Assembly: GCA_026770705.1 (NCBI GenBank)
Contig: JANJGN010000007.1
Coordinates: forward strand, 96,968,001 to 97,032,000
Direction of reading: 5' to 3'
Length of the DNA: 64,000 bases
DNA from: Isurus oxyrinchus
Taxonomy: Eukaryota
Part shown: positions 4,811 through 64,000 of the stretch, piece after piece
Layout: each line of letters opens with the position of its first letter
Position numbering within the stretch: the first letter of the stretch is position 1
Position numbers and translations under genes: made by a program
Notes under the pieces: model-generated
The model's database searches: none
The model's input: the letters and a program-made list of their open reading frames with translations, nothing else
What the model was told of the DNA's origin: nothing

Positions 4811-4819
4811 AAATCATAA

Positions 4820-18075: not shown

Positions 18076-18138
18076 TTTTAGCTGTTTACTTTTCTGATGT
18101 CAAAGTTAAGATTTTTCTTTTCATTTTCATTTTCCTAG

Positions 18139-37465: not shown

Positions 37466-40010
37466 CTTATTATGCCATAGAAAGGTCTCTGTCACTCCTT
37501 TAGCTGCAGACAGAGGATAAAATGCTACACCTATTCTTAATTCTGCATCTTCCCCTTCTCTTTATAGGGTTCAGCGGATCCCCAGGATACAGCAGAGATT
37601 GTACCTTTTTCCTATTCCACTAGGGGACAAATTTAACTTTGGTTTCTCTAAAATTTTTTACAACTTTACACGGACATTGTTGTTTTCCTTCTAAGGCTAA
37701 ACTGCTTTATAGCACTTGTACTAGCATCACTTGATCAACAATTGTTCAGGGCATAGACGATCATTGATGAAGTTAAGAAAATTGAACAAATGATGTTGGG
37801 AAATAAAAGGTGTGAGTGCATCCAACAGCAACACAAATCAATTGGGAGCGCTTCAATTAAATAGTTCAATGTGTTAGCAGTATACAACCCATTCATTTTT
37901 TTGTCAGCATGGATGTAAAATAATAACTTTTGCTTCGAAATGGGAGCCTCCTTGCCTACAACAAACATATGAATACTTGTAATCATGTTCCACAGTGAAG
38001 GCAACCCTTGAGAACTAAAACAGTGATGGGTAGAGCTAAAACGATAAGGAAAAGAAAGGGGTGATGTGTAATTGGTTCTATGTTACAAGAGCTGTTTGTG
38101 CTGACGACAGAGAGAGAGAAAAAAGAAGGGTACCCCTAGGGAGTTAATAAGTACTGGTAGGCAGGAGCAGAGGAAATGTGCAGTTTCATCAGTTTGATGG
38201 TTGCTATAGGTGGAGCCTTCAAGATCCCTTTACTTCCACCACTGTGATTTGAAGATTTGTTTAGAATATGGAGGTTTACATCGTTAAGTTAAGGATAAAG
38301 GACTATAAGTACATTCCTCTAAATATGTTTGTTTGTGTGCAGTTAAGGATTTTTTTGTGAGCTTTAAAGTGTTTTATTCTGTAAATTGCCATTTGTATGT
38401 GTAGTTACGCAGTTTAGGTTTGAAAGCCACATGTTAGATTAAAGGAAAATGTCGTAAAACATTCGAAAGTTTTAAACATAAGATTTGAGTTGAGATTACT
38501 GGCAAAAATAAATCTCAATTTGAAGATATCATGAAGCTAAACAGGGTAAAGATGAACCGACATTTGTACCACCCTTTTGTAGACTAGCATCACCAGTGTC
38601 CAAACAGATTGGGATCGACACAGACGAGTTGCATTAACATATCCACGTTAGTATTCAAAAACTCTGAAGGAAAAAGAAAACCTGAAATTCAAAAGGATTC
38701 TAGGAAACCCAGAAGACATAAACAAATGATCTACGTGATTCCAATGGATAAAAGAGGTTTCTTTTGAAGAGATGAATTAAATATGATAGGAAATCTGCAA
38801 CCCAACAGCACTGTAATTTGAATTTGGGACAATCTTGAAATGTAAAGTGCCGTGCAATTTAACTACGATGCTATCCAAAGGTAAATAATGTGTCGATAAA
38901 CGTATGGGACTTTGAACCTGGATACAAATCATTGCACGTGAAGAAGAGGTTGTTTTAATTTTGATAGTGTAACTTATATATCTCACAATGTTTGAAATTT
39001 GACGTTTGGTTCCTGATAATTGCTCAAAAAGGAATTTTAATTTTAAAAGGGTTGGCAACAATTGACACTAATTCAAATGCTGCAAGCTTTTGTATTTTTA
39101 AGCCTGTTCCCACAATATGAAGCTAAGCTCAAGGCCTCGGCAACGTTTGGTAGAAATCAGATTTTTGGCCGTGTTAATGAATCTGGGACAATTCTAAAAT
39201 AAACGGGTCAGACAGAATTTAGTGGGTTACTTTTGAGACAATAAATTGCTGTTTTAGAAAAAATTAAGGAAGCAAAACATTTCAAGGCTTCATTTCTATT
39301 TTTAAAACTGTTATGAGAATATTTTATTTATTTTAATATCCCTCCAGGCTGCCTGAACAAGATGGCATCATAATTGTTGCATGTGTTAAATGCTATGAGG
39401 CAAATAGGTGAAAGAGTAAGGAAAAGAGGACAAAATGTACAAATATTTTTACGGCAAGTGAATTTGATAATCTGGTCTTCAACTGAAAAATTGGAAACGC
39501 ACAGGGGGAGATAAGCAAACATCTAGGGACAGAGATCTTCATTGACACGCAATTGTTAATGTGGCCTAAAGAGCACGGAAATATTATAAACCATAAAGAT
39601 AATAGAGAAACTGACATCAAGAGAATCTTAGGATGATCATGGTCAGCGGAAAAGAAAGTAGAGGTAAAACTATGTGGAATCTATAGATCAGAAATTGAAA
39701 TGTAAGGAGAAATGATACTTAACAACTTACCACAAGATGGATATAGGTAAAGGGAAAGCTGGGAAAAGGCTAAATAGATGTATTACTGATTGTATTAATA
39801 TGCCTGCGAGCAACAAAACGTAAACCCACAGGATTAACGTTATGATGAAAGACAGAGTTAAGTGGCTCCCACAGAGAACCGTCACAGGGAGTTAAAAAAA
39901 CGGAGCCATTGAAAGATAAGATAAGAAGGTGCATTGTAGAGTTCTGTAGGCAGTTTAAGGAATTGAAGTCCGACGTGGGACAGCAGCAAGAAATAGTAGA
40001 CTGGAAGGAG

Positions 40011-40280
40011 TGGAGGGTGCCTATCCAGATGGATTCAGATTAGGGAACTCATTTCACAGGAACAATAATTAAATAAATTTAAATCCACTTCTCTACCAAC
40101 CATAGAGCTCGGGGATGATGGAAAGCATGAACTGAACTTTAAAAAAAAAATCATTGCAAAAGCAATTCAAGAGAAAGGGAACAACGCAATATTCTAATGC
40201 GCCTAACGTTAACCCAAGCAGAACGACCAGGTTCACCTCGTTTGAATTATTGATAGGGAGAGCAATGTAGATACCCGAGG
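40011..40280 (+). pseudogene. pol: Retroviral integrase core, C-terminal half (ERV1)
   Basis: WRVPIQMDSD*GTHFTG...YQP*SSGMMESMN*TLK...TRFTSFELLIGR, covering the second D to the E of the DD(35)E core. Confidence 0.8.
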
Positions 40281-40575
40281 GGATCACGGAAGCAGCGGGA
40301 GACGTAGGACCACTAAAAGGAGGGATGAGAGACTATGTGAGTGAAATAAGTAAGCAATTGCATGAGTTAAGGTAAAAAGTCAGAGACAAACAGGTGATGG
40401 TCAAGGTGAACCTGGAGCGAACATACGACAGTGATACTGTCAATTATGACAGTGATACATGCGCACTTGAAGATATAAGAACGGTAAGTAAATGGATGCA
40501 CTGCACACAGTTAAAGATGCATGACAATTGACCAAGCCGTAACCCGGAGAATGTTAATGTCTCCACAGATATAAC

Positions 40576-42530
40576 ATGCAGGTCTTGGGTGTATATATGC
40601 TGGAAACAAGGTCGGGGATCATCACTGCTCATCCCACAATGCAGGAGGCAATTTGGTACAGAATGAACAGTGCCAAATGCGACATGCAAAGCGGAATAAT
40701 AAAGGTAACAGTTGGAGAACACGTGCTTTTAAATTATAGTAACGGTTTGCATCAGGTCGGGCGTGGGAGTTCCACCCAAAAGAGAAGGTTAGTGCCACTA
40801 CCCAGCCACCTCACACCTCTACTTCCACAGTTCGAGTAGAGATATTTGAAGCCTCAGAAACCACGCCAACCGACCCTCCTTGTCCAGCCATGTATCCAGG
40901 GCCGACAAATTGTCTCGTATTGATCAATCAAAATAAAGTTATATATGATAATGTATACCATGAGCAGGTGCCATAGTCTTGAGCGTATCCGTTTTCGCCC
41001 TCCCCAATGGTGCTCAACCCACACCCAAGCAGTTTATACAGCTCTGACGGATCAGTTGATGACTGAAGCAGTTGCATTGAATGGCGAGCTGCGATATGGC
41101 TTGGGTGGAGTGGGGGTTGGAGGGGGTGTGGGGAGAGGGAGAGGTGGGGACCACGTTAAGAGCAGCCTGATAAATGATGTGCTACGATAGTCAATACAGG
41201 GACATCAGTGATTGATTCAGAACCTAGCAACTGTTGATCAGAAGTTCCAGACCATGAGCTCTAAGCATAAGGAGATTCGACAGCAGGGACAAGGAATTCA
41301 TAACACAAAATTAAACACAGACCAGGACATGGCACTGCTAATCCAAAACCTGGCAATTGTGCTCGAAATTCATGCGGGTTCTAGCAATAAACTGATTACA
41401 ATAGGGGAAAATATTTCAGACGAAACAAGTAGAAATGATATTTGCAACACATACGGATCCTGGGCTCTTGTGAAAACCTGAAAGAATTTAAGACAGATTA
41501 ATGAAGGGCATTCGGCACTGTCCAGGCTGTACCAAAGTTGCTTTATGGTTAATTAATAACATTTATGTAATCTTTCACGACACAAGGATCATGACTTGAC
41601 TGGCTGCCATCTCAGAGGTTTAATATACATATATAGAATGAATGTTAAATGTATAGTAAATAATGATATGCTAATTGCCTTAGTGATACCTGTTATATCT
41701 ATGTCAACATCCGGCAGGACATTTTATATAGTAGAAAATATTGGTGTAATATGGGGGGGATTAATATATTAAGTCCCACGATATTCCACCATATGCAGCA
41801 GACGTAAAAGTGAATACAGTTAGCACACATTAGAAGAGTGTAGAATCGAGGCCACCGCAGTAGTATGACCACCCCCTATATGAGATGGAAGAAGTGAAGT
41901 GGCGATTTTAAACAGCAGCAAACTGTGGAATGGAAACTATATAGGCTGCAAAGGAACCGAGCAATGTTGCAGACACGGGGAATGGGAGATATTGCATCAC
42001 CATATGGCAGGAAAAAATCCAGTATGGTTGCAACTGGATATGCCTCAAACACAATCATTTGGTGTACCTACACCCACAGGTGCTGGCAAGGGTGGGAAGG
42101 TGGAACTGGTTGAAATATACAAGAGAGGAACGACTACTATTGAGGTCATGGAAAACCTTAAAGAAAATCTGACACAGTATCTGTACCAGTTCTCCTACGA
42201 AATTACTATGTTACTAGAGTACATTATCGTGATTTGGAGGCAGACTCAACAGATGTACAGAACTCACTATACACTGCAGCAACAGGTTAGATCCTGAAAG
42301 GAGGATATCAAACAAAAAGATTATTTCACATGGTGGGATGACCTGTGGAACTGGCGCTCAAACGTACAGGTACATCCCTGGAATCGGAATATCTCCCATG
42401 CCCTAGTTATAATTCAACTGATATGATTATCTGCCTTAAACAGTTAATTCACCCACCCTGAAGAGACAAAGACGGTAGCGCTGGGGTTGTTTCAACAGAT
42501 GGAGAAGGGATTTAGCAAGCCAGAGGCCTG
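40576..42530 (+). pseudogene. env: env pseudogene (ERV1), class I fusion glycoprotein with F-like subunit proportions
   Basis: Acceptor ctccacag| then ATG at 40576. Degenerate basic cleavage site followed by SLINDVL..NTGTSVIDS.NLATVDQKFQ and a heptad. LIALVIPVIS..FYIVENIGVI, C-terminal heptad, WWDDLWNW and TM ISHALVIIQLI follow. Stops and frameshifts. Confidence 0.75.
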
Positions 42531-42686: not shown

Positions 42687-43229
42687 TGTTCTGGGGGAAT
42701 AAAGCGGTACAGTAAGAATTTATTTTCAGGGAATGCTACTGTTGGAATCTCCAAGCAGCCAGTGCCTGCAAGTACATTGACAGTGAAAAAGCACCAGACG
42801 AACCTTATACACTCTTGGGCTTTCTACACCCTGAGGGTTTGAAATCACCAGCAAGGACCTGGGAGTCAGACTGGGGACTTAGTTTATAAAAAGAACATTT
42901 AGGTTTGAGCCTATTTACCGCAGATAGGGAGAGAACAGATGGTCCCAAATTAGACAGGAAGGAACGTCTCTCCCTAGGCGAACAATAGGGACATACAATG
43001 CATGCACCTGTTACCAGAGATGTCTTTTTAATGTAAACATATATGTTGACAAGATCGGAATCTGGAAACTGTTCTTGTACGTGACCAATAATGTATAAAT
43101 ATGTTGAACACTTGTAATTTGGCAGAGTACTGTCTCATGCTGTATTGAGGTAGTGCTCTCCTTGCAATTGCTCAAATACATGATCGTACCTGAGACTCTA
43201 GCGGTCCTTTTATCAAAGTGACCACAACA
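42687..43229 (+). repeat. 3' LTR of ERV1
   Basis: Preceded by PPT-like AAAAGTGGCGAC (42675-42686). Starts TGTT and ends ACCACAACA. TATAAA at ~43095. Similar to the LTRs at 52611 and 58134 (TTGTACGTGA.CA, CTCTC.TTGCAATTG). Confidence 0.85.
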
Positions 43230-43526
43230 AATAATAACTACTTCAACGTTTTTTCATGTATATAAATAAAATTAGTTTATTTTTAATTTTACCACCACAA
43301 TTCTATTGTCTGATTTTGGAACAGAGGGAGTGAGGGAAGGAGGAAGGGAGAAAAGGACACATTGTTAATTTTCAAAGTTCATTTTACAAATGCAGAAGCG
43401 ACCAGGCGATCTCGACCTGCCCTTACGGCAGATTAAGCCTAGGACTCCTCAAGTGCTCCAAGGAGGCATGTGTGTATCTGGTTCCATGTTGATCTACTCC
43501 AGTTCCTCCATTTCTTCATTGCCAGG

Positions 43527-46340: not shown

Positions 46341-46699
46341 ATATATTACACTGACGAAACGTTGGATATACCTCAATACAAACGCTAGTAAAAAGTCAAA
46401 TCACATTACTTCTTCACCCCATTTATACCTTCACAGTTACATACCTCAAAGTTAATAATCACTGGAGTATTAACTGAGTGGCGTGCAAATTGGCATATGG
46501 CAAATAAGAGTATATAATTTAGCGGCTCGTTCAAAGGCAGATGTGTGAGGAGTAGGTTTAGATTGGCAGCCATACTGGGAAAAATGGGGGATGTAAAATT
46601 TGCCCACCTGCGCCTCAACCGGGCTGAACTGATATCCTAGTGATATGCTTAATTAGGGCATTAAACTAAGCGCTGGGGGCAAGGGATCAAATTTCAGAA

Positions 46700-49380
46700 G
46701 ATCTGCTGCACCAAACAGTAAATACACGGCAAGGATGAAAGGTTCAATTTGAAAATAGCAATTACAGGAACATAGATGCAGCCTGACATAGATTGAGACC
46801 TGAATGTTGAATTTTATGTGACAGTTGGGATGAACAGAAAGCTAATCAAAGGTAGAGTGGTGGTAATGTTAATTCATGATGGTATTAGCACGTTAGGGAT
46901 GGATGACCTACGTTCAAGAAGCCAGAATATGGAAGTAGTATGGGTTGAGATGAGAAACGATAAAAAGAAAAAGCACTTCTGGGAGTTATGTACCAGCGCC
47001 AGAATTGCAAATACTTGCTATAAAGCCGCTTAAAGTAAGAGATAATGGGACGTTGTCAGGAAGACGCCGACAGTCATTTGGGATGTTAACATACTGATAG
47101 AATGTAAAAATTAGATGGGCAAAGGTAGCCTAGATGAGAAGTTCATAGAATATTCTCGAGAACGTTTTCCGGAACAGTGCTTTCTGGAGAACAGTCTGTA
47201 TTTGACCCAGTGCAGTGCATCGAGATAGAATTAATTGAAAACCACAAAGTGAAGGCACCACTAGGTGGCAGAAATCCTAACATGATTTAATTTTACATTC
47301 AGTTTGAGGTTAGAAAAAGAAAAATAGTTGGACCAAGCCGAAATTTTAAAATTAAATAAAGGCAATTATGAGGGTTAGAAGGCAGAGCTATCTTAAGTGA
47401 ATAGGCAAATGAGGTTAAAGTTTAGGCACATAGTGATGCAGTCACAGACTTTAATAGCAGTATTTCACGCTACACAGAAAACATACATTTAAATGCGAAG
47501 GAACAGTTCCAAGGGGTGTACCCACCAACCGTGTTAAATGACAAAAAGTAAAAGACAATTTCAAACTGAATGAAACAGCATATAATTGTGGAAAGATGGG
47601 TGGCAGATCAGATCCTTGGACATGGTATAAATTAGAGCAAAGAATGACGAAATAATCAGTAAGGAAAGAGAGTTAAAGTACGGGAGGAAGCCAGAGTCAA
47701 ATATAAATATGAATAGTAAGACTTTCTATCCGTATTTAAGCAAGAAAATATAATACATTTAGCGTTTGTCCTATAGAAAATGTGTCTGGACATTCGTGAT
47801 TGTACGTGAGGAGGTGGCAGATGTTTTGAACGGGAATTTTGCATCAGTCTTCAATATAGAGGATAAAAGTAGCATCTGAAAATAGCTTTAAGTCAGCAAA
47901 TGGAAGGAGGGGCTAACTCAGAAACATTACAGTGACATGTCATTGAACAAATTGTTGGTACTGCGGACTAACATATTATGGGGTCCTGTTGGGCTCGATC
48001 CTGAGGTCTTCAAAGAACTGGCTAGGGAAGGAATTGCTGCATTGTTTTTTAATTATCCAAAATTCCCTACATTCGGTCAAGGGTCAATTATATTAGAAAA
48101 CAGCAGATGTAATTCCTTTACGCAAAAAATGTGTTTGGAGCCTGGGGGGAAACGTGGCTGGGAGCTGGAGGGTGTTCAGGGGACGTGTGGATGGTCAACA
48201 AGCAGGACCTTACAGGCTAGTTGGCTTAACACCTGTCTAAGTTAATGTTATACGCTATTTTAATTACCTTAAAACAGGGAACATGTTGGCATGGATATAA
48301 GCTTTGGTAGCAAGCAGCAAACAGTGGGTAGTCGTATTTGTGTTGGTGGGATGTGCCACGTGGTGTGTCAGAGAGATTGTTGCTGCGGCTTCAACTTGTT
48401 TACAATTTATATAAATGACTTGGATGAAGAAACATGCGGTATGGCTGTTACATTTGCTGACAATGCTATGATAGCTAGGAGAGTAGTTTGTGAAGAGGAT
48501 GTGAGAGATTAAGAAGTTTCAATGAAGGGTTAGTTGAGTGAGCAACGATCTGTAAAATGCAGTATCACGTGAACACATGTGAAACGATCGAATTTGGAAG
48601 GAGTGATAAATAAGAAGTATTATATCTAAATACTGGGAGATACAGGGTATCTTTCTGTCCCATTGCATGAATCACAAAATGCTAGTAGGCAGGTGCAGCA
48701 AGTAATTAGGTGCAGCAAGCTAATAGAATGTTATCGTTTATTGTGAGACAATTGTTTACCAAAGTAGGGAGCTCATTCTTCAGTTATACAGAGCACTCGG
48801 GACAGCAGGTCTGGAGAAGTGTGTACAGCCTCGGTCTGCTTAATTAACGAAGGATGTAAATGTATTCGATGTAGTTCAGAGAAGGTTTATCAGACAAATG
48901 CCACGAATGTGTGGGGATTGCCTTATGAGGAAAGGTTGGACAGATTAGGCTCCCCAACCACTGGAGTACATATAGTCAGAGGTCAATTCATTGAAATGTT
49001 TAAAAACCTGAGGTGTCTTGACAGAAAAGTTGCAGCGAAGATGTACACCTTCTAGGAGAATCTAGTATTCAACGTCGCAGTTTAAAAGCAGGGTGTCGAC
49101 CAATAACGGGAGATAAGAACCTTTCTTCTCTCAGAGGTCAGTGAATCTTTGAAACTCGCTCCCTGAATAAATAGCCGAAGCAGAGCCTTCGGAGATTTTT
49201 AAGGCAGGGCATGGTAGTTTCTAGTTAAACTAGAGGGTGAACCATTATCGGGTAAGCAGGAATGTGGAGTAGAGATTACAATCATATCTGCATGATATCA
49301 GTGAATTGCGTAGCCGCCTCATTGGGCTGAGAGACCAACCCCTGCTCATAATCCATATGTTCGAAAATTTCTATGTTTCT
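46700..49380 (+). mobile_element. Decayed CR1 ORF2 (endonuclease to 3' UTR)
   Basis: MEVVWVEMRND, GPVGLDPEVFKE, FTIYINDLDEE..FADNAMI and LPYEERLDRLG. Confidence 0.85.
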
Positions 49381-49384
49381 ATAC

Positions 49385-50120
49385 TAATTTGTAAAGATAA
49401 CACATATCAAAAAACCTATCTTATAACCTAATATAACAAAAGAAATGTAAACACATAGGAACCGACTGGTTAACTGTGGTCAGGCACGTCGCACTCCATA
49501 ATGAGTGACAGGTGCAACCAAAGTATAATCACGATATTATCTATCACTGGACCCGACACCCCGATCCTCGAACCAACACCCCACCCACTACACACACAGT
49601 CACACACAGACTCCTCGTAAACCACGAACCACCAGACTCACTGAACTCTGTCTTTCTCTTCCTGAGATTTCTTTGCACCAGATACCTGCATGCAGTCAAT
49701 TCACTTTGCATGCGCGCTTTCAGATATTCCGTAGTGCTAAGCAGAAGACCATTGCATCGAAGGTGACCTTTTTCCTTGATGTCCGCTGCACAGTGTTTCT
49801 AAACTTTGGCTACCCTCTCGCTGCATCAGCCTGCTCTCAAGCCCACATTGTTTTGAGCTTACCTCCGACAGCTTTCAATGTAATTCGGAGCAAATGGCTC
49901 TGCTCCACACCCGCCTATTTTCAGCTGGATCTATTTCTGACCTCTGTCCTTATCCTATACCTAAGAACTGTATTTTGACCGACTTCATGGTCTGGGGACC
50001 ACTTTTTTGTTTAGGGCTGCCCTCTGCCCCCTTCCTTGTCCTGCTCTTTGTGGCGCCTTCTCTGCAAAGGCTCTCGGCTTCATATAATCTGAAATGCGGT
50101 TACGCCTCTTATTCACCTTT
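49385..50120 (-). repeat. LTR-like segment related to 43527-44845
   Basis: Shared blocks such as ATCTTATA..CTAA and GTGACAGGTGCAACC versus GAGACGGTTGCCACC, with the same pyrimidine-rich composition. Confidence 0.35.
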
Positions 50121-50399
50121 ACTCATTTAAACTGCGCAGTGCCGTTCCCCGGCAATAAGCCGAGAAAATTCCGAAAAGTGCCCATGTCCCGCCATACTCT
50201 GGCTGGTGCATACGCGAGAAAGAAGACTTGAAGATATTTCTTTTTATGAAACAGAACATTGTATGTGTGGCTATTCATTAGCCGCCGCATGCGCAAAATG
50301 CCAGACGCTTCGTCTAGATTTAAAGGGGATGGTTTCTCCTTATTTTTGACCTTGGGTCTCGTCATGCCAAACACTTCATTTCACATTCGCAATCATCAG

Positions 50400-52500
50400 C
50401 TTACATTTTAACACTGCGCATATTTTAGAGGATGGATTCAAGGCTTGATTTTCAATTGGTCAACAGGAGGCAAGACAAGGGGAGAGGATAGCAACCGCAC
50501 AAGCATTCCAGAGAATATTGCTGACAGTGCACTATTCAATAGGTTAGGCGACACAAATAGGCCTGCACTTGCGCACAAATAAATGTTCGGTGCATTTAGA
50601 AGTATGAGGGAACGCGTTTGCTCTATGTCAAGAAGCCTTAAAGACTCCAGCACCGACTTCGCACAATATGTTACTCAGAACTCAGAATATATACTTTCCA
50701 GGATATCAATGGTGGCAAAACCAATGGTATTCTCGTGAACCCGGTTAAGACGGCGTGTCTGATGGTCATTGTCTCAGCTTGCATTGCCAAGGAAGTCACT
50801 TTCACCAAAAGGTTAAGTTTTTCGGTTACAGATCAGACTGGCCTCAGGAAAGGCTGGTTTCACGGTACTACGATCCTTGCTACGAATATCTGTGTGCATA
50901 GAAGCGTTCATCGTATCATTGCAGTCCACCAAGCCCTGTGCCTCTGCCAGATTTCGTGCTATATCTTGTCAGCCAGAAATACCAAACTAGTCAAGCACAT
51001 GTTTAGCTGCCACAGCCTGAAGCAGCATATTCAAGGCCCAGAACTGTTCCATGTGTCCACCCTGTCTCTGTGCAGTCTTTCCACTTAAAATCAGCGACTT
51101 CCAGATGACAGAACTCGCGTCGATGAGATAGAACTGCGTAGGCGAAATAGCATTGCAATAAAAATTAAAAATATGGTACTGTGAAAACATGATGGGTGCA
51201 AGTTTGGTGAAGATGCTTCATTTCTAAATTTGAAGTAGAATGTTTTTTTTATGTGGTGCCTTTCATTTTTGCACCATGCCATTGTGTCTTTTGTCAGAGT
51301 CACTGGCAGAGAAAAAAGCAATCACTATGACATCATTGGCGAACGGGGAATTTCGCTTATAATTCATGCTATCACAGCTAAATGAGAATTGCTGTGCTGC
51401 CTGGAAGAAAGAAACCTCTCAGTTTCTGCCTGCGTAATAACTCCTGTCAAAACCGCTCCACATATTTTTCTCCTTCCTCATTTGCAGGCTGATCGTCCTC
51501 AGCATCTCACACTGGTGGCTGATGTCAAGAAATGCCCCCTCATGATGGCCACTTTGCGCAGCTTAACACCGTGAATATTGAACATGCCGCATCAAATTTT
51601 AGATCAGTATAGGCAGTGAAGTTGTTGGTCCAGCAGGTCACTGATCTGATCTGTTGCATCAATTGAAGCAGAAAGCCCCAGTAGGAAAATTGATTCCCTG
51701 ACACTAGTGACATATGTGGCCTGATTTGGAGAAGTCTACTCCCTCCTTAAAATCCCTAATACCCTAATTTCTCCAGCATATTTGTTTTACCTTGCTACTG
51801 ATCATTCTTCAGCACATACACTACTTCATTTGGAGGGGCTGCTGTTTCAGTTACGGTTGCTGCAACTAAGTGGTGCGGAGGCCCTTAAATGCACAGTAGC
51901 AAATTTAAAAATTCCATTCACAAAATGAAACATTGGAAGTATAAAAACATGTTTAGAGTTCTAACAACAACTAGATGGAAAAAATCAATTGCCGCTGATC
52001 TGGGAATGGCTCATACACCATCCAAATGCAGATGTACGTGGTTAAAAAAAGTGTAGGCTGTTGTCACATGCAATATTGGGGCTCCGGGCACTTATAGTAA
52101 ACAAAGGAGGGTGCTGCGAACTTTAGTTCCTCACCCAGCAAAGCCCAGAGACGATTTTGCAACCAGATTGGATGAACAGTCACTCCATGTTCCATCTACT
52201 CTCGCAGGTCACACAGCCACTCTAGAGGATAATCCATTTCAGAAATATCTCTTGTAACCGAAAGTTGCACCTGATGAAAACTAAGCTGAGAGCAATAATT
52301 ATACGGAAAGGTCAAAGCATCTCCTGGACTATGGCCCTTCTATAGTTCATTGCTGAAAAACGATTTGCATTAAATGTAATGGCTGCACAGGAATACGTCA
52401 TTCTTTGACCTGTTTCCCGACAATTGCCACCCTGTGCTGTTCTGTGCAGAATGCCTCTTCACGCTCCACCCCGCCTCGTCACCACCACCCACCCTCATTG
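50400..52500. mobile_element. PIF/Harbinger DNA transposon relic (accessory Myb-protein-like ORF on +, DDE transposase on -)
   Basis: Minus strand 51535-51655: DQISDLLDQQLHCLY*S...KLRKVAIMRGH (cf. EQTIGLLKQRFRCLDRS...MLHNLAIMRG). Plus strand 50585-50790: MRERVCSMSRSLKDSSTDFAQ resembles the C-terminus of the accessory protein. Confidence 0.6.
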
Positions 52501-52610
52501 CCTCTTATCTTTGTTATATGTTGCATGGAGCCTGCGCAGAAAATGGCATTCTTCTATGCAGCCACCATTCTGTGACAATTGACATGCAGTCATCTTGTCC
52601 AGCAAGACTT

Positions 52611-53093
52611 TGTTGTGGTAGCTTTGACAAATAGACCACAGGACGCTCAGGTATAGACCACAATCATTTATTCAAGCAATTGCAGGGAGAGACCCATCTT
52701 AATGCAGCTTGAGATAGCACTCTATCAAACTAAAAGCATACAGATTATTTTATGCACTACTGATCACGTACAAGACCAATGTTCAAATTCCAATCTTGTC
52801 AGCATATAGGTTACGTCATACATATTATTTCATGCCAGCACAGACTTCTCTGACTATCCAGGTTGGGGACATCTGTCCTTTCCTTATCTCAACAGAGCAT
52901 ACTTAGTCTCTGTCGTTGTCACCCTCTGATTCCAGTCCGGCTCCCAAGACCTTTCTGTTTTTTGCAGGCCGTAAGGATGTGCAAAGTTCTTCTCGCAACC
53001 TTTTGCTCTTAATATGCTTGATAGCACTGGCATCCTGGTGATTTTATGTATTTGCATCTTTTTTTATAAATGTTTACTGTATTTCCACGAGGA
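52611..53093 (-). repeat. 3' LTR of ERV2
   Basis: On the minus strand it ends ...TACCACAACA, carries AATAAA (~52667-52672) and is preceded by PPT AAAAGGGAGGAC (53094-53105). Confidence 0.9.
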
Positions 53094-53249
53094 GTCCTCC
53101 CTTTTGGCCCTTGGCCTAGCCCACGTTAGCTTACTGCAATGATACTGTCTGTTCCTTTACATACTGCCACTCATTGATACTGACCAGGCATCCAGCTTTG
53201 ACATGTAAAACGCTACTGGTCAGATCATCTGTATCATCTGGACCTCAGT

Positions 53250-54680
53250 TCAGCCTTCGGGCTTTGTAAACCTCTTCTCCACCCGTTAAAACCCCCAGCG
53301 CCACCTGTTTTGCGACCTTCGGGTACAAGTAATTAGTTTTATTAAATATATAACTAGTATCAGCTGAATCACAGCCAGCACATTGGAAATTATTGGAATC
53401 CACGGATGTATTTGTAGGTTTGAGCCCCAATTCCACAGAGCCCCCATCTTGTGGAGGGATGTATTTGCTCAATATACTCTTTCAAGTCTCTAAACTGTTG
53501 TTGCAGTTTACAGAAAGATCTATACATCTGCTCAACCTGTGCCCGAACTGTATTTATTTGCTCTGATTAGGGGTACGTCCGATAGCTCCCGTTCTGGATC
53601 TTTTGCTGCCATGCGGTAACACATGATCTGCCATTCCTCATACATGCAACGTGAATCGGTTCTTTTGCAGCCCTGATAGTTTTTATTGTACAAGTTGATG
53701 CTGCTTTAAACCCGCACCTAATTTCCTCCATCGCATATGTTGGATGTGCGCATACTACTGCAGTAGGCTCCACACCACACCCTTCTCATGTGTTGCTAAC
53801 TCTCTACCCTTCTATGTCTACTGCATATGGTGGAATGTCATGGTACTTAATATAGTCATCACGCTGTATCACCACAATATTTTCTACCCCATAAAATTCT
53901 AACGGATGTTGAGATACCTATTAGTGGCTTCACTAAGAAAATGCCTATGAACATATATTTCTTCACTATTCATGCGACATTTATTCTACATACACGTGTC
54001 AAATCTCCGAGCTGGCAACCAGTCAAGTCATGATCCTTACTTCAGGCAAGTTTAAAGAAATGCTCATTTGTTACGCATAAAGGAACTACCCCTTCATTAA
54101 TCTTTCTTAATTCTCTTTAGCATGTTCTAGTGCCCAAGTTCCACAAGTGTTACAGATATAATTTCTGCTGCTTCAACTGAAATATGTTCTTCCTATCCCA
54201 ATCAGCATATTGATGCTCCCCAAATAACCTTCCATCACGGTAGCCAGGTATTTATTTAACCAAATCGTGCCCTTTTCTGTTTTTAATTGGGTGTTGTGAA
54301 TTCCCTGTACCCGTTCGAAAATTTCCTGATCCTTGGAGCTCAAGGTCCGGAACTTCTGGTCAACAGTAGCCCGGTCAATAGAATTAACCATTGATATACC
54401 TGTAGGTATCATATCCCCAGCATTCCCGCACCCAATTTGAAGCAAACCCTTGCTACAATTCAAAATCACTTTTTATTCTACTGTTACATTTAGCATTCCC
54501 CGTTGTTCGGCACTGTCCGTGCTGTACCAAAGTTTCTCTGTGGTGCAGAGGGAGGCGTGCTAATCCCTGGACTCGCTGCCAATATCACCATGCCCTCGAG
54601 CTTTGACGTTGTGATCAGCATTCTGACAATATAAGCAGATAACCATCCCAGTCATAACCAGTAATTTCTTGAGGTTAGTT
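53250..54680 (-). pseudogene. env: env pseudogene (ERV2)
   Basis: TGISMVNSIDRATVDQKFRTLSSKDQEIF..QGIHNTQLKT and LWNWGSNLQIHPWIPIISNVLAVIQLILVIYLIK align with ERV1 env. Acceptor ctctccatag| at 54690-54681. Confidence 0.8.
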
Positions 54681-55029
54681 CTATGGAGAGAATCCATTTA
54701 AAAAACCCTTACCTTGTGAAGACTGCTTTCAGCGCCCATTTCCCCTAAAGTCCATGCATGCACATGTGTCGCTGGTCATGTTTACTGCAAATGATCCTAC
54801 CCACTTTTGTGCAAACCCCATTCGTTTTGGGTTGATCTTAACCATCACATTGGTCTGCGCCTGTGGGATGTGTTATTGTCTTTCGTATATATGTGTTTCC
54901 ATGTCCTTAATCATCTGTTGGTCCCTGACTTCCTTCCTTAACTCTTGCAATTGTTTACTCTTTCACTGACATAGCATCGCACCCTTCCTCTTAATTTTCT
55001 ACATCGCCCACTCCTACTATGATTCTCTT

Positions 55030-55340
55030 GGCTAACTGCATTGCTGCTCTTGTCATTCGTTGAAATGCAGTGAATGGGGCGTTTCAGCTTGTGGTAGCCC
55101 TAAGGCCTTCGGAATATTGCGCAATCACAGTTTGCCGAGCTGTTCCCTGTCTTTTGAATTACTTTAACTGCTAATTTCATTTTTAAAGTTCGGTTCTTCG
55201 TTTCCAACATCCCCAAGCAGTGTGGATGGTAGGGAATGAGGAGTTTCTGCTAATCCCCTTAAACTTAAACATTTCTATAATGACTGTTCCTTTGAATTGA
55301 GTTCCATGTTTTGAATCCAAATTGGTACTCCCCCCCAAGC
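55030..55340 (-). pseudogene. pol: Retroviral integrase core, C-terminal half (ERV2)
   Basis: GVP..LDSKHGTQFKG..IPYHPHCLGMLETKNRTLK. Confidence 0.8.
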
Positions 55341-58112
55341 CCCCAACTTATTCCAGTCTACTACCTCCTGCTGCTGCTGTCCCACGTCGGATCTAAACTC
55401 CTTAAACTGCCTACGCAAATCTACACTACAGCTCCTTATCTTATTTTTCGAAAGCTCGATACCATCACTTCCAGTAGCGGTTCTCGCTCGGAGCTGCTTA
55501 ACTCTGCCTTTTGTCATGATGTTCTTCCTGTGGTTTTACATTGTTTTAGATTGGAGGCACATTAATGTAATTATTAATGCATCTGATTAGCCTTTTTTCC
55601 AGCTTTCTATACACATGTATTCATCTTCTGGTGAATTATTGTTAAATATTAGTTCCCTTACGTTCAAATGCCACAGTTACAGATTCCACAGAGTTTTGAC
55701 TCAAAGTTGTTTTTTTTTTTCCTGACCAGAATCATCCTAAAATTCTCTTCAGGTCAGTTTTTCTATTGTCGTGATGGCTTAAAATGTTTCCTTAATCTTG
55801 AGGCTACATTAGCTATTCCATGTCAATGGGGATCCCTGTCTCTAGATATTTGCTTATCTCCTCATGTGAAGTTCCAATGTCTCAGATGATGGCCAGTTTA
55901 TCAAATTCAGTTCTGTTCCCAGCGTGGGTGCTGACTGTGACCTAGAGAGATCAGGAGAGTGAGAATAGGATAGGGCGGGGAGGGGGAAGAACGTGAAGGA
56001 GTGTGGGGGTTAGAGAGAGGGTGGTAAGGAGAGATCAATATGCTGGTAGATTAGTAACTAAATTAACAGGTTAAAGCACTCAATGGAATAATTTTGCAGG
56101 CCTTGATGCAAGTAATCACAGTCATGTCTCTGCCACCCCTCCCCAAGAATATTTCTGATTTTCTTTTTCGCGTTTGTGCATTTTGTCCTCTTTCCGAAGC
56201 TCTTTCTTTTACTTTCCTCATGCCATTTTACACATGCAACAGCTACCATCTTATCTTGTTCAGCTTGTCTCGAGAGTTTTTACAGTCCAACAAAGTATTC
56301 TCATGACAATCTTAAGACAAAATACAGAATTGACATGTTATGCTTCATTACTTTCTTGTCAAACAACATCGTATTGCCTCAAAAGTAACCCACTACATTT
56401 TAGAATGATCTCAGATTCATTAACTCGGCCAAAAATTGGGTTTGTGCCAAACTTTGTCTAGGTCTTCAGCTTAACTTCATATTTTGGGAACACACTTACA
56501 AATATAAATGCTTGCAACATTTAAATTAGTGCCAGTTGTCAAAAAACATTTAAATGAAAATTTCCTTTTGACAACTTTATCAGGAAACAAACCTCACATT
56601 TTTAAATTTGTAAGAACTGTAATTTAAGTATCAAAATTGGAACAACGTTTTACTCATTTGTATTGATTTGTATCCAGATTAAATGCCCGGTATGCTTATC
56701 GACACATTCTTAACCTTGAATTGCATCCTAGTTATTTAAAAATGCCCTTCTAAATTACACTGCACATTACATCTCAATGTTGTCTCAAATTCAAATGACA
56801 GTGCTGTTGGGATGCAGATTTCATTTCGTATTTCATTCTACCATTCAAACGCACCTCCATTTTACCCACTGGAACCACATAGGCCGTGTGTTTCTGTCTT
56901 TTGGTTTTCCTAGAATCGTTTTGAGTGTCAGCGTTTTTTTCTCACAATATTAGAGTACAAACTCCTATGAGATAATTTAACTCGAATGTAGCAATCCCAT
57001 GGATAGCTTGGATGCTGGTGATACTACGATGCACGGGGTTGGTGCAATGGTTCGTTCATCTAACACTGTTTTAGATTTCCAATACCATCAAATTGCGATT
57101 TCTGCCCGATATTTCAACCCAAACCGTTTACTCAGTGCTTCTGAATGTTTGAGTGTACATTGCGTTTAAAATAAAATAGGACTGTCGACTCGAAGTACAC
57201 ACACAAATTACAATTTAAGGAAGAAAACACTTTCACATCTTGCACACAAGCAAACACATATATAAGCGTCTGCATTTATATACCTATAACATAAACTTAA
57301 GGACTTAGAGCTCTCATACTCAAACCGAAATTTCAAGTAGCAGTTGTGGGGAGGGGAGTGGGGGGAGGGGGGGGTCGTATTGGAGGATTCAAGGGTTCTT
57401 GGAAGCTGTACCAAAGGGGCCAATGAAGCTGACTGAAGGTCACATTTCCTCTGCTCGTGTATGTCATTGCTGATTGACCCCCTAGGGGTACCTCCTTCTC
57501 TCTTTTTTTTCTCTCTCTCTTCAGCAGGAACAACGCTTGTAATTTAGATCAATTCAGTTTATTAAGTTACAAAAAAATCAATAGGAGACCTATTGTGTCC
57601 GAATCATCCTTCCACATTTTCCTGATTAATTTTGATCGTTCTTCCTCCATGAACCTCATAGTTGGATCCGCAGCACCCCATTCGATTTCGATAACAATTT
57701 ACTGTTCTCCTGACCGCATTCTATTCATCTATTCCTACCTCTTTCTGAGCAGTTAATTGGCATGACTCAGAGACATTTGTCACTTGCAATTTGTCCAGTC
57801 TACTTATTGCACGAGGGATCTAGCCTCCCTGTAGGGCTTCGGCTATGTTTTTGATTACTACCGTAACCCGTCAGCACGGTTCTGCCCCCTATCTTTGTAG
57901 TTGTCCGGCCTCCCTGCGCGGCTTTGGCACCCCTAGCCCACCAGCGTGGCTCCGCCTCATACCATGGCGCCTGATGTCCTGATTACCCCCCCTCGCCGAT
58001 TCTTTTGATACTCGAACAGACATTCTCGGCGAGGCATACCGCATTAACTACAGTTGGAAAATAAAACATACTCACCCAATTTGCAGAGCTGTCCCGAAGA
58101 TCTGATCCAAGT

Positions 58113-58130
58113 ATCCTAACGAATGCGCCA
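58113..58130 (-). promoter_or_regulatory. Primer binding site, tRNA-Ser-like
   Basis: TGGCGCATTCGTTAGGAT lies 3 nt inside the 5' LTR end and matches 14/18 to the complement of the tRNA-Ser 3' end (TGGCGTAGTCGGCAGGAT, recalled from memory). Splice donor GGTGAGTAT follows at 58076-58068. Confidence 0.65.
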
Positions 58131-58133
58131 AAC

Positions 58134-58614
58134 AGTTGTGGAATCTTTTATAACCGTACCTCAGGAGGCTCAGATACTTGTCATGATCGTTTATTCGATC
58201 AATTGCAAGGTGAGAGCAATCTCAAGCAACTTGAGATAGCAGTATGCCAAATTACAAGCATACAGCTTTTTGTATAGAATATTGATCACGTACAAGAACA
58301 ATGTTCAAATTGCAATCTTGAAGGCACATAGGTTACATCATACCTGCTCGTTCACGCTGGCAGAGACCTCTCCCTCTTTCTAGACTGGGGCCATCCGTCC
58401 TTTCCTTATCTGTTGAAGAGCACACTTCATTTATGTCGTTGTCATCCTCTGGCTCCAAATGTTTCCAAGGCATTCCTGTTGGGTGCAGGCCCTGCGGTTG
58501 TACAATGTTCATCTGGTAACATTTAACTGTTAATGTGCTTGATAGCACTGGCTGGCTCGAGATTTTAAGTAATTAATTCCCTTTCAATACATTTTTAAGA
58601 TATATCCCCTAACA
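58134..58614 (-). repeat. 5' LTR of ERV2
   Basis: On the minus strand it starts TGTTAGGGG and ends CCACAACT, with AATAAA at ~58190-58196. Homologous to 52611-53093. Confidence 0.9.
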
Positions 58615-59364
58615 ATTTTCTTTTAGGCAAACTTGTATTTTGACTAAAAATCGGGACGCCTTGCTTCTGCCCCTGCCGTTGAAATCATCTCCGGCCCATT
58701 ACAGTGTGCAAGAGGCTGAACCCGCCGCATCCAAAGCGTTTCAATGTTTTATTTTTCAAGTTATTAACACACAAATAACCCAGTATTAATAAAGTATGGG
58801 AAAACTTGGCCTTGACTTTGATATTTTGGAAGCAGAAACCCTGGATTATTGAGCAAGTGCCTATTTTACCAATCATAAAATACTAATATACCGCAGCAGC
58901 CTGACGAGAAACCTTGTAGGCTGCAACGGTTTCTGTTTGGTTTGCAGCAGTCTCTGGTGTTAACCGGAGACCTGGGGCATGGCAATCAACATCTGGATCG
59001 TAGTGTTTTAAATTTTTCACAGTTTCCTACATTCCGACATGAAATCTGCCTTTTACCTCATCGGAAATGAGCTACGGCAATTAGCGATTTTGTTTTATTT
59101 ATTTATTCTTTTGTCACGCTTCGCACAATTGAAGGCTAAGTCTCCAGTGGGCGTTGAAAAGAAGCCGTGACAAAATGAGCACAGGCTCGAATTAGCAATT
59201 CTCGCTATTTCCCGTTGATTTTAATGGGCAAGTATCAAAGAAATTCAGTGAAATTCAATGCTTATAAAACTGAAATCCCGAGTTCCACAACAAAATAGGA
59301 ACTTCTCATTACAGCTTTCCTAAGGGAAGGAGGTCCCGGTACATGTTTACCCACCTGCTCTTTG

Positions 59365-59622: not shown

Positions 59623-59788
59623 GTACCTATTCCTTTTACAGGTTGATTTCTCACTAAATCGCACATTTATATAATTTTCATCAATTCATCATGTTTTGTT
59701 GTCTTTCGGACGGATTAAGGGACTCACGTAACCTTTCGGTTTTTCTGCTGTAATTTTATCTCACACAATCGGATTTGATTTTCTGAAG

Positions 59789-60106
59789 GCTCCGGTCAGA
59801 ATTCGGTGACTGTAATACAGATTCCTGAGAACATGAACCGAAGAATGGGTAGGAACGCTACATTTGGTTGCTCTCTTCCTTTCATTGAAAACGGTGCAAT
59901 TCTTTATGGACGCTGGTGGAAAGAGGGTGAAAATCAATATTTACGCCCGGAGCAAGATTTCAGAATAATAACTTTCCCCAGCGTATCCGGCGGCATCCTT
60001 CATATAATCAATGCAAGTTTGCAGGACGTAGGTATATATGATTGTACTATGACCAATCGAGGCACATTTGTTGGAAACGCAACGGGGTCCAATTTATCTG
60101 TATCGG
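59789..60106 (+). CDS. Intact IgSF V-set exon with a germline J-like G strand (SIRP/NKp30-like architecture)
   Basis: tttctgaag|(G)SGQNSVTVIQIPENMNRRMGRNATFGCSLPF..YGRWWKEGE..LHIINASLQDVGIYDCTM..FVGNATGSNLSVS(G)|gtagg. B-strand Cys, C-strand Trp and DxGxYxC are present; phase 1-1; no stops. Confidence 0.88.
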
Positions 60107-60221
60107 GTAGGTTTGGAAAAAAAAGAGAGAAGGAGTTGTCGGTAACTAGTAATTCGCACTTTGAAGCTTTTCTCGTTTGTGCTTCGAAAGGTGTGCATTG
60201 CAACAGAAGGTATTTTTATTT

Positions 60222-60360
60222 TTAGTCATCCATAGGATGTTAGCAGACGAACATGTGTTTCCCATCCGTAATTATGCTTGAACGGAATGTCTTGATCGAT
60301 CAGTTCCAAGAGCAGTTAAGAGTCACCCACATTGCATTTGGACTTGAAGTCACATAATTG
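60222..60360 (-). mobile_element. tRNA-SINE family 3' part in the V-C1 intron
   Basis: CATAGGATG..CCCATCCGTAATT..GAGCAGTTAAGAGTCACCCACATTGC. Confidence 0.6.
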
Positions 60361-61205
60361 CAAACGAAGTCGCGCCGACTATGCAGTGTCCATTGTTTTA
60401 TGCGCATGTAATCAAATTGCGACTTGGATCTCCATACTTAATATTCTATTACCTGTCACATCATCTCAGCAATATTTATCACGATAAGCATTATCTGTGA
60501 GCAGTCTAATCGAAATTACAGAGTTATCATGTTGTGCAGTACCATAAAATGTTGCGCATATATTTACTTTATTGATTACGAGTAAAGATTCTGCCAGTCT
60601 GCACACTGATTTGAACACATTTGTTGGTTTATTTTATTACTTTGGGTAGCGAATTATAAACGTTCCTTCTAGGATTCTGATTTGCGCATCTGCAACTTAA
60701 TAAGTTTTGTGTAAGGTCTTTGAAGGTCCGTATTACTAACAAACAATGCCTGCTTAATCACGAATCCTATATGTTCATTTGATCTCCAATAAGTAAGGGA
60801 GCATGTTGAATATTGATGTCACTTTCAATTCACCGTTTCGAAAAGGAGGAGGTAGGCAATCGGACACCAGTTTATAACCCTCCCTATATTATTTCCGAGG
60901 CGAACAACAAAAGTGCTGTCCTGATAACGGACGGCCCATTTACTAGCACCTGTCGTTAGTCAGTTGATTACTTCAAATTGCCCTCAATTTACTTTTATAA
61001 AGATTGGCTCTAATTAATATTTATAAGGATATTACTTTGAATTTAGGTACCGAAAGCGTGCAGAAAAGATCTTTGCTTAAAGCCCGCCACCGGTATCAGT
61101 CCCCAATGACTCACTGTGATTAACAATGGCCTGGAATAAAACGTTGGGCTGTTAAACTTGTCCAATGCATAAATGAAGATTTTTTCTTCCCTTTCATTTT
61201 CCTAG

Positions 61206-61510
61206 ATCCACCAACTCCACTGAAAATTAACTCTCAGCAACTTCTAAAAAATCAGCTGCATCTCTTTCTCTTCAATATAGAACATCTCTCTATTTCCCCA
61301 AGGACATCAGTTTCACTTGGTCCAAGTATCAAAACTACAGCAGGGGTACATACCACAATTAAACCTAATTTCGATGGACTATATCAAGCTTAAAGCTGGT
61401 TACAGGAGACGCAGGCTATCCAGACAAGCACTATTTATACCTGCCGGTAGCTCACAGTACCCTCCAAAATTCAGCATCGGTCAATAACGTTGTCATCTAT
61501 CCTAACAATG
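61206..61510 (+). pseudogene. IgSF C1-set exon 1, disabled
   Basis: tttcctag|DPPTPLKINSQ..YFPKDISFTWSK..DGLYQA*SWLQETQ..IYTC.VAHSTL. Frameshifts, an in-frame TAA, loss of the B-strand Cys and an apparently mutated donor. Confidence 0.85.
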
Positions 61511-62620
61511 TTAACAATTTTCGTAGGGGAATAATATTTGAAAATACATCTGATCTGTTATGCCAGTACGGGTTCTTTGGAGTTTGTGTTTAACTTAGCT
61601 TCACGACGTAGGCATTTTACTTATAGTTCTGTAAATTAGTTCTCTTCAACTACACATTCAACGGCCTTTGTTGAAATGTTCTATGTGAACTGCTCCAACA
61701 ACTTTCTGGATCTTCCCAACACACAATGAAAAAATACTTCTCAAATTCCCTGTTATTTCTGTTATTGCCCAATTATTTCAACTATGTGACTGCCGGTTGT
61801 ACATTTACACTGCTTCCTCTCAAAGCCCTTCTTTTTCGTAGCCTTAATACTTTCTGTTGTAACGTGAATATCCCAGATTCTGCAATCACTCTAAACAGCA
61901 GGAGGCGTTCATTGCCCTAAGCATCATTAATACATTCACAACGGTCTTGACATCCCTGGTGAACTCTCTTCCCAACTTGGTGATAGTAGTGGAGCTGATA
62001 ACTTTCCAGTGACTTATAAAGTTTAGCATCACGCCCGTGTTTTTTTAAATTTAATGTCGCTATCTGAAAAGTAAATTAATTGCAGGAGCATCCGTAATCT
62101 GATTATGATCTTTCCCTGCCACGTTCAAATGCTGCTGAATGTGAACCTTGATATTCGACTGCTTTTGCCTCAAACTATTTTTTTTAGATTCTACTACCCC
62201 TCCATGTTTTCTCAGACGATGACCACATACATTAAGTTGCACCGACATTCTGCCTGACCATTTCGTCAGTCTATGTCATTATGATGGTTTGCAATGTCTT
62301 TCAAACTCCGAACTAAGTCGCCATCACAGCATTTTCTATGATCCACAAAATTCTGCTCGATATGTTCCAGTCCAACAGCTTTACATGTACCAAGCAAAAC
62401 GTTGGTACTCATAATTATATAGGAGAGACACGATATAAATTTGACCTTTCGAAATATACTGCTCAGTTTTCAGCTACTGGTAGAGCACAGTGAAAATCAC
62501 TGCACAAAATGAACCTCCCTCACCGTCACCATATCGTCAAGTTAGGAATGAACTGAATCACAAGACAGAGTTGCTAACGTTATCTTATCTCCAAGAAACA
62601 TTCATTTCCTGTGCTCCGAG

Positions 62621-62929
62621 TTCCACCCGTGCCTCTGAAAATCAACTCTCAGCCATAAGAAAATGATGCCCCTTCGTTTGTTACTTATCTTTTCATGGCA
62701 TCTCCCTTTTTCCCCCCCGAAGAATGCCAGTTTCACGTGTTATAAGGATGCCACCAAAACAGGAAAAGTGATACTTATAATTTCTCACCCACTAACCAAT
62801 GGATGATATGAAGATTCTAGAGGCTTTCAAGGTATCCAGGCTATCTAGACACAACTACTTATACCTGCATGGCAACTCACAATACTCTCCAAATTGCAGT
62901 TATGTTCACTCATATTGCCTCCTCTCCAA
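62621..62929 (+). pseudogene. IgSF C1-set exon 2, disabled
   Basis: ag|(V)PPVPLKINSQP*..KNASFTCYKDATK..NG*YEDS..TYTCMATHNTLQ..|gtaag. Stops and frameshifts. Confidence 0.8.
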
Positions 62930-64000
62930 GTAAGACTTCTGATATAATAATAGAACCTTAAAGGACAATTGGTCGGACATACCGGTGCATTTAATTGAAA
63001 TAGGTGCCTAATTTAGTCCCTCACCACAGCTTGTTACTTATAACTCGACAAATTGTTCTTCTTGAAGCAAATGTTCAACGCTCTTTAATCAATTTTATTC
63101 CTTATCTTCTCCCAGTTGGAAACTTTCTGGATCATCCCAACCCTGCATGAGAACATGTATCTCCAATTTTTCCAATGCATTCCTTTACCAGTGTATTCGA
63201 CTGCTGGTTATGCATCAATGTATCTCTATAATCTTTTATAACCTTACTCACGCAATTAGATGTCTTCATAAATATATTTTTCCCTCTATAGGGTAGTCTC
63301 TGAATATTCCTCGTTCTACGAGAAGATCACAACCTCTCCGATCTCTCCAAGTCACAGGAATGCACATCCCTCTGAACTTCCTCGATTCCACTCCATGTCT
63401 CCTCGTCCTTGTTATACTGTGCAGCCCACAATTGGGCATAATAGTTGACAGATGCTTAGATCCTGATTTCTAAATTTTTAGGATGACTTCGTTGGTTTTG
63501 TATTTCAGATTACTATGTACAAATTCATTTCAACCAATGCGCATCCATAGACACCTTGTGTTCTTGTCCTACCATCTGTAAAATCTAATGATAATGCATA
63601 CGCAGTTTCTACTGTTTTTGCTTATACCTGAAAAAAAATATTAATTTCATTTCACTGCCTCTGTTGTTTAACCCAAAGTCTGCATTTCAAATGTATTCAC
63701 ATTAAATAATAATTACGATGCTTCCAACCATTCCATTAGTCTATTTGTGTCATCCTGAAATCCAAGACGGTCTACAAAACCTGAATCATCCATTGTTTCT
63801 ATCATGAAGGATCTTTGGAACTGCAGTCACGATATTCCAGCCAAATTCCTTGTCGCATATCCAATAAAGCATTAGTCATCACATTGATTCCTGGGGGATT
63901 CCCAGTGATTATGAGTGTCCTGTTTAAAAAAGAAACATTTGTGGATCACAACTTTTTGTCTCCTTGATTATAGCTATTCACCTGCAGAAGGTGCCTTATT

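Follow-up and report, generated by a model that had tools for sequence, protein, structure and literature searches.

Retroviral genomes that have lost pol while keeping env sequence are known from chicken EAV-HP, a young element of 4.2 kb from which pol is missing entirely and gag and env in part. It retains sequence of both genes, is believed to depend on a virus acting in trans, and also exists in intact versions (PMC3554524, PMC3747184). In cattle, the non-autonomous D-type ERVK[2-1-LTR] indicates, in the portion cited here, that trans-complemented defective elements can dominate new insertions (PMC10924933). Lokiretroviruses have an LTR-gag-pol-env layout and are defined by an RT tree, and an RT-based survey recovered none from 6 cartilaginous-fish genomes (Wang and Han 2020, PMC7947760). 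Here we describe two old, broken proviruses, ERV1 and ERV2, in the window (the whole 64,000-nucleotide stretch of DNA analysed), neither of which has detectable RT or RNase H. We consider it reasonably likely that they were separately inserted from a deleted genome that was copied in trans by intact relatives.

Compared with EAV-HP as excerpted, both proviruses also lack RT and RNase H, keep env sequence and were likely moved in trans; unlike it, they keep half of integrase, are far older, reside in a shark-like host and carry an unrelated env. A helper-dependent, pol-deleted ERV architecture is already known from the EAV-HP excerpts (PMC3554524, PMC3747184), and the initial annotation's view of the arrangement as an unusual reverse of the usual env loss has to be given up; novelty may lie in the little-described lineage and host. 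The cattle elements are likewise defective and mobilised by trans-complementation, but they are active and betaretrovirus-like, and the cited portion describes non-functional genes rather than a shared pol deletion with env kept. With lokiretroviruses the proviruses share the layout, and their env relatives bear a weak likeness to F-type fusogens; the RT-tree criterion and that of a tether plus RNase H, however, are inapplicable, the region concerned being missing from both copies.

ERV2 lies on the minus strand and measures 6004 bp between its outer LTR ends (52611-58614; Table 1), in agreement with the ~6 kb first estimated, with the primer-binding site, splice donor, splice acceptor and purine tract located where expected. 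Paired LTRs, a primer-binding site and a polypurine tract together mark it as an LTR retroelement, and its primer-binding site may resemble the end of tRNA-Ser. At the putative target-site duplication, 3 of 4 bases agree across the two sides of ERV2. The assembly of its junction is backed by an own-species sequencing contig covering 54904-55844 with 0 differences. ERV1, on the plus strand (38070-43229), is 5'-truncated and retains only the 3' end of the LTR/PBS/PPT set, with a purine tract preceding its 3' LTR. Five aligned blocks, each 64-70% identical and together running from 38070/57554 through to 43231/52609, link the two copies, which are ~25% diverged (distance 0.29). The proposed collinear interior is borne out by these blocks, but the 5' portion of ERV1 is missing within the window. 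Similarly, the junction motif said to be common to both copies occurs in each, but it marks the start of integrase homology, and the breakpoint itself cannot be placed because there is no intact parent element for comparison.

Table 1. Features of ERV2 and ERV1 (positions in the window)
Feature	Position	Strand	Remarks
ERV2 5' LTR	58132..58614	-	begins TGTT; end placed within a few bases; 74.5% identity, K2P 0.31 to 3' LTR
ERV2 primer-binding site	58113..58130	-	TGG start
ERV2 splice-donor-like site GG|GTGAGT	58070..58077 (58075)	-	consensus match only
ERV2 leader			0.42 kb; GC-richer
ERV2 decayed sense-strand ORF, probably gag by position	56176..57681	-	starts with myristoylation-like M-G-x-x-x-S
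ERV2-only insert	55913..56175		~0.25 kb; low copy
ERV2 pre-integrase segment	55400..55912	-	0.5 kb; also in ERV1; weak candidate for protease plus protease-RT linker
ERV2 junction and broken C-terminal half of integrase	54720..55400	-	E 0.014, z 12.6
ERV2 splice-acceptor-like site	54681..54692	-	upstream of env; pyrimidine-rich ..AG; ERV1 counterpart at 40568
ERV2 env pseudogene	53320..54680	-	two internal stretches absent relative to ERV1
ERV2 polypurine tract	53096..53105	-	precedes 3' LTR
ERV2 3' LTR	52611..53094	-	from LTR comparison
ERV1 interior, collinear with ERV2	38070..39945	+	5' LTR, PBS and leader absent
ERV1 junction and C-terminal half of integrase	39945..40520	+	E 4e-4, z 10.6
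ERV1 env pseudogene	40570..42440	+	longer than ERV2 env
ERV1 3' LTR	42687..43229	+	from LTR comparison

Retroviral Pol profiles confirmed the proposed C-terminal half of integrase (DDE integrase homology) in ERV2 (score 36.9) and ERV1 (score 36.4), and gave no signal for protease, RT, RNase H or N-terminal integrase in either copy. All 22 interior tests (11 profiles on 2 copies) scored a shuffle-like 12-19, with a top z of 2.6. The RT profiles were built from gamma-, delta-, foamy- and gypsy-type viruses and not from the lineage of ERV1 and ERV2; held-out RT decayed by 14-18% scored a median of 29-63 in all four settings, with the lowest-scoring simulated RT at 15, within noise. An RT, if present, would usually have been detected by these profiles. 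Searching both ERVs by tblastn with 56 retroviral ORFs, a method that we judged too insensitive, produced no match at E<0.05, and a protein search with the integrase piece matched 0 of 85 candidates and revealed no Pol relative. RT and RNase H remnants, which were sought as a refutation of the deleted architecture, were thus found in neither interior by profiles or tblastn. Pfam returned nothing meaningful on stop-read-through frames of both ERVs, and as it misses even integrase and env in these elements, we did not accept it as evidence on RT. The pre-integrase segment offers a hint only of a protease-RT linker, a block just upstream of the junction ranking 2 of 127,852 in ERV1 and not seen in ERV2, with 60 blocks tried.

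The interior upstream of integrase had been described as 2.7 kb of AT-rich sequence without protease, RT or RNase H; the lack of signal for all three stands, but the region comprises a GC-richer leader, a decayed ORF, an insert and the pre-integrase segment. About 1.5 kb of the ERV2 interior bears a decayed sense-strand ORF signature (P=0.015); what had been taken for filler is thus probably the remnant of a reading frame, whose position is that of gag. The element probably retained gag besides env, making it gag-env instead of env-only. Gag profiles from four lineages found no match in the interior, a protein search with the interior alignment matched 0 of 7999 candidates and PDB searches gave nothing significant, so that none of the three approaches found a homologue supporting the gag identity. 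An antisense reading frame across this interior, also considered, was not supported (P=0.19).

Retention of env and its splice signals was upheld in that an acceptor-like site is present in both copies and a donor-like site in ERV2, but env itself is a pseudogene in each, with many stops and frameshifts, and that of ERV2 lacks ~0.4 kb and ~0.16-0.19 kb present in ERV1. Between the copies, env gave a dN/dS of 0.53 (95% 0.39-0.73) against 1.25 and 1.48 in the off-frames, although 1 of 8 off-frame controls also reached 0.48; the interior and integrase gave 0.92 and 1.20. These ratios point to modest purifying selection on env, alone among the regions. Four-fold sites numbered 18/57 versus 14/68 (p=0.22), and the comparison of divergence in the 5' and 3' halves gave p=0.09.

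We then weighed whether the two copies could descend from a single insertion of a deleted provirus, followed by an early inverted segmental duplication whose flanks were later overwritten by LINE insertions and deletions. The copies are only 9 kb apart in a duplication-rich window, where a host pair (15408-16180 versus 59989-60742) is of similar age (K2P 0.36); AA starts both 3' flanks, and ERV1 has lost its 5' end, leaving a target-site duplication unreadable there. However, these host duplications are direct and the ERVs inverted, and the 3' flanks are as different as had been reported (local score 14, shuffle mean 13.5), with no flank homology of the kind expected from an inverted duplication detected on either side. 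Duplication of ERV2 would be expected to make its 5' LTR the outlier of the three LTRs; instead it is the ERV1 LTR that stands apart, at 87 columns versus 47 and 40 (87 versus 40, p=4e-5; only 25/19/15 in the best-aligned block), and it is no nearer the ERV2 3' LTR than the 5' LTR (0.365 versus 0.364). Selection on env between copies would also be unexpected if a dead copy had been duplicated. We regard this duplication as unlikely; because the flanks are unrelated and the ERV1 LTR is the outlier, ERV1 and ERV2 are most likely separate insertions.

An RT too decayed or divergent to detect, within an interior representing a compact or rearranged gag-pol, appears very unlikely to us. The ORF signature persists in the interior, even integrase and env escaped Pfam here, and visual inspection can conjure up short patterns reminiscent of RT; on the other hand, the same profiles saw the less conserved integrase half in both copies and no RT, and the span from the putative start codon to integrase common to ERV1 and ERV2 provides ~2.0 kb where PR-RT-RH-IN(N) alone needs ~2.8 kb in the retrieved Pols (~940 profile positions), with no space for gag. 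Alternatively, the family could be mostly autonomous, with ERV1 and ERV2 both descended from a single rare variant that carried the deletion and gave rise to only a few insertions, short of true non-autonomous amplification. Sequencing depth and the collapsed younger contigs are silent on the pol content of other copies, but finding the deletion in 2 of 2 window copies would be improbable for a rare variant, even though their proximity may be non-random, and we consider this scenario quite unlikely.

Both copies, most likely independent insertions, show the same RT/RNase H loss, which supports a loss predating both insertions. With prior loss and independent insertion each supported, spread in trans is the best reading; the amplification in trans proposed by the initial annotation is upheld to that extent, but its basis is two copies only, the two in which the shared deletion was read. 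In such a course of events, one deletion would take out ~2 kb between approximately the beginning of RT and the middle of integrase, and a short RNA with LTRs, PBS, PPT and leader would be co-packaged with helper Pol. The deleted genome would then integrate at least 2 times at about the same time, as the ERV1-ERV2 divergence of 0.29 is close to the 0.31 between the ERV2 LTRs. Absolute dating was rejected, since the rate implied in the cited portion of PMC4422223 (0.033 = 75 Myr) makes the age for an LTR divergence of 0.31 impossible. The synonymous excess in env suggests that both templates bore env genes shaped by selection: env may still have functioned in the deleted lineage, or its env-LTR half may have been swapped with helper genomes via template switching. 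Such selection between two RT-less templates would imply that a defective genome can hold on to a functional env, or exchange it, during its spread in trans.

ERV1 and ERV2 belong to a multi-copy family: contigs of sequencing run X2 had summed depths of 232-11,408 in 15 of 15 ERV bins versus 30-52 in five unique-looking bins, and collapsed contigs of depth 442-568 match each copy in part. Contigs of a related species (species B) span both 3' ends and the ERV2 junction (74 differences in 1194), and both insertions are orthologous there. No paralogous contig spanning the junction occurred among the contigs listed, viral contigs yielded no relatives and metagenome contigs no junction match; no RNA source was listed either, an outcome uninformative about expression. 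It is tempting to speculate, although we find it doubtful, that this is a large ancient shark family, lokiretrovirus-like with an F-type env, dispersed chiefly in an RT-less gag-env state whose env was selected or repeatedly helper-refreshed. If so, a defective genome would have furnished the envelope for its helper while pol was gone, and an RT-less family would escape the RT-based screens that report no cartilaginous-fish lokiretroviruses.

The relatives of env are unnamed shark proteins. F-type-env retroviruses may extend to sharks, where the RT-based survey had none in 6 genomes. Alignment of env against longer proteins matched 0 of 2967, gamma/delta-type or foamy env gave no score >0 in either direction against the ERV env, and PF00523 had no significant sequence match, with Pfam, PDB and profile comparison all negative for an F relation. 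The env relatives weakly resemble F-type (lokiretrovirus-like) fusogens, carrying a basic cleavage site, a hydrophobic peptide, a coiled coil and a late hydrophobic segment. In the Atlas, the clusters closest to them are Baculo_F, Gypsy env and Fusion_gly (features 0.90-0.92, low recognition). Finally, within ERV2, summed depth in run X2 falls to 54 at 55921-55960, in the ERV2-only insert, versus 1063 at 55812.

We consider it rather likely that ERV1 and ERV2 represent a real and old ERV family from a poorly described shark lineage, one that is pol-deleted, probably non-autonomous and of a type already known. Pfam and tblastn missed even the integrase in these elements, therefore we searched with profiles based on 28 Pol proteins (11 gamma-, seven delta-, seven foamy- and three gypsy-type, the lineage labels being our own). 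In both copies the C-terminal half of integrase then ranked first among all matches across the window (E 4e-4 in ERV1, 0.014 in ERV2), and a frameshift-tolerant scorer gave it z values of 10.6 and 12.6, respectively. The absence of reverse transcriptase (RT) and RNase H claimed in the initial annotation held in the profile search of the interior that it had proposed: all 22 tests for protease, RT, tether/RNase H and both integrase halves stayed at shuffle level (scores 12-19, top z 2.6). An RT, if present, would usually, although not always, show, since RT of a held-out lineage decayed by 14-18% gave median scores of 29-63 with a minimum of 15. The size of the interior agrees with this absence, as the ~2.0 kb shared before integrase is too short for the ~940 Pol codons that precede the integrase motif in the profile. 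At the junction, where the interior runs into the integrase half, the upstream frame of ERV1 enters the integrase motif without a shift, and just before it, in ERV1 only, lies a stretch weakly similar to the protease-RT linker. We infer that a deletion of ~2 kb took out the sequence between the start of RT and the middle of integrase. The ERV2 junction is spanned by an own-species contig with zero differences, which rules out an assembly error as the origin of the short form.

Features of the two proviruses and their surroundings (window positions)
Feature	Coordinates	Strand	Remarks
ERV2	58614 to 52611	minus	paired LTRs, PBS, donor, acceptor, purine tract
ERV1	~38070 to 43229	plus	five blocks collinear with ERV2
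ERV2-only insert	55913-56175		low-copy, pyrimidine-rich, holds acceptor-like tract
Immunoglobulin V/I-set-like domain	59779-60225	plus	stop-free; Pfam Ig_3 E 7e-5, under curated cut-off

ERV1 has neither a 5' LTR nor a PBS or leader within the window. ERV2 carries a private insert of ~0.25 kb, absent from ERV1; contigs place the same insert in the ERV2 orthologue of a related species. The ERV2 env lacks ~0.4 kb (ERV1 40753-41182), where relatives have a cleavage site and then a hydrophobic peptide, and a further ~0.16-0.19 kb downstream; stops and frameshifts are numerous in both env copies.

The AT-rich interior had been taken for non-coding filler, a reading we replace with a probable decayed gag because sense stops are depleted and the start and length fit. 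Stops common to both copies number one on the sense strand against 4.3 expected (P=0.04), and chaining frames across the stretch costs 2 against 6.5 expected (P=0.015; controls: env 0.005, pre-integrase 0.78, LTR 0.46). A Met-Gly-x-x-x-Ser start lies at 57681 in a stretch of ~500 codons, and position and size fit gag. No homologue of the interior was found in any search made, including gag profiles of four lineages. ERV1 and ERV2 resemble EAV-HP, a pol-deleted endogenous element of chicken, in keeping env sequence, with gag only probable here; EAV-HP is described as lacking pol, keeping gag and env sequence and being thought to need a helper. Trans complementation is presented as a standard way of spreading in PMC8922424, and PMC10924933 reports that in cattle new insertions can be dominated by defective elements. 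Sharks are not mentioned in the accessible part of bioRxiv 2023.10.26.564294, and no earlier description of this shark family was found in the literature searched, a set outside which lay most subscription papers and repeat databases.

Neither flank pair of ERV1 and ERV2 shows homology, bearing out the differing 3' flanks of the initial annotation and arguing against an origin of the two copies by duplication. Duplication of ERV2 would also predict its 5' LTR as the odd one out; in a three-LTR alignment it is instead the ERV1 LTR that is odd (87 columns, against 47 for the ERV2 3' LTR and 40 for its 5' LTR; 87 versus 40, p=4e-5). The best-aligned LTR block by itself, however, gives just 25/19/15, so a duplication soon after insertion keeps a small likelihood, and the proposed independent insertions are favoured by flanks and column counts to that extent. 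Divergence between the two interiors (0.29) about equals that between the ERV2 LTRs (74.5% identity, K2P 0.31), which suggests that the 5'-half templates of the two insertions were nearly identical at insertion.

With contigs placed at 80% likeness on 39300-59200, the own-species run (X2) gave summed depths, not equivalent to copy number, of 232-11,408 in 15 of 15 ERV bins, whereas five unique-looking bins had 30-52; this shows that interior, env and LTR alike have further copies elsewhere. Collapsed contigs at depth 442-568 (single-copy pieces 20-33) match partly the ERV1 and partly the ERV2 env, suggesting younger near-identical copies, and no paralogous contig across the junction was among the matches listed. 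Related-species contigs span the 3' ends of ERV2 (172 differences in 3309) and ERV1 as well as the ERV2 junction (74 in 1194), so both insertions and the deletion predate the species split, whose age is about one fifth of that of the LTR divergence. There are hints of a younger subfamily burst in the related species: high-depth collapsed contigs of three of its runs (X13, X6, X5) at 39459-39944 include the pre-junction interior.

Among 1.84 billion representatives, env has only six relatives, all uncharacterised shark proteins (E 5e-18 to 8e-5; Heterodontus, Pristiophorus, Mustelus, Heptranchias), which makes a shark the likely host. These (P0002-P0007) constitute a single env family that Pfam does not match; one of them, P0004 (673 aa, from Mustelus), spans the greater part of env and may be a copy that is either young or co-opted. 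Searches of env against gamma/delta and foamy env, an errantivirus env and PDB gave no sequence match. The Atlas clusters nearest to P0004 were Baculo_F, Gypsy and Fusion_gly (0.90-0.92, low recognition), a lead towards the F-type env of lokiretroviruses, a group whose membership is based on the RT absent here. A lokiretrovirus survey gives 0 positives in six cartilaginous-fish genomes (PMC7947760), and PMC4422223 adds a chimaera to the hosts of snakehead-like ERVs.

The env dN/dS, which the initial annotation had suggested estimating on internal branches among copies, was 0.53 between these two copies (274 codons, bootstrap 0.39-0.73); the interior gave 0.92, integrase 1.20 and the off-frame readings 1.25 and 1.48. 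Against this, one of eight off-frame controls gave 0.48, and neither a four-fold-site test (p=0.22) nor a half-versus-half test (p=0.09) was significant. Split by codon position, env shows 80/68/102 differences out of 294, and the 5' half 103/111/110 out of 421. As the env excess lies at synonymous sites and pN is at background level, env would have diverged under selection before insertion, rather than through later co-option.

The window also holds LINE-like repeats, which we take to be CR1, with very high-copy fragments at 45873-49362 between ERV1 and ERV2 (X2 summed depth up to 72,000). The immunoglobulin-like domain, 1.2 kb from the ERV2 5' LTR, probably represents one exon of a gene for an immune receptor, on which that LTR could have an influence. 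Old direct duplications at 57-74% identity (15408-19929 versus 59989-63619; 3935-11784 versus 21212-34706) and a tandem internal repeat (61200-62168 versus 62615-63621) suggest a duplicated gene cluster.
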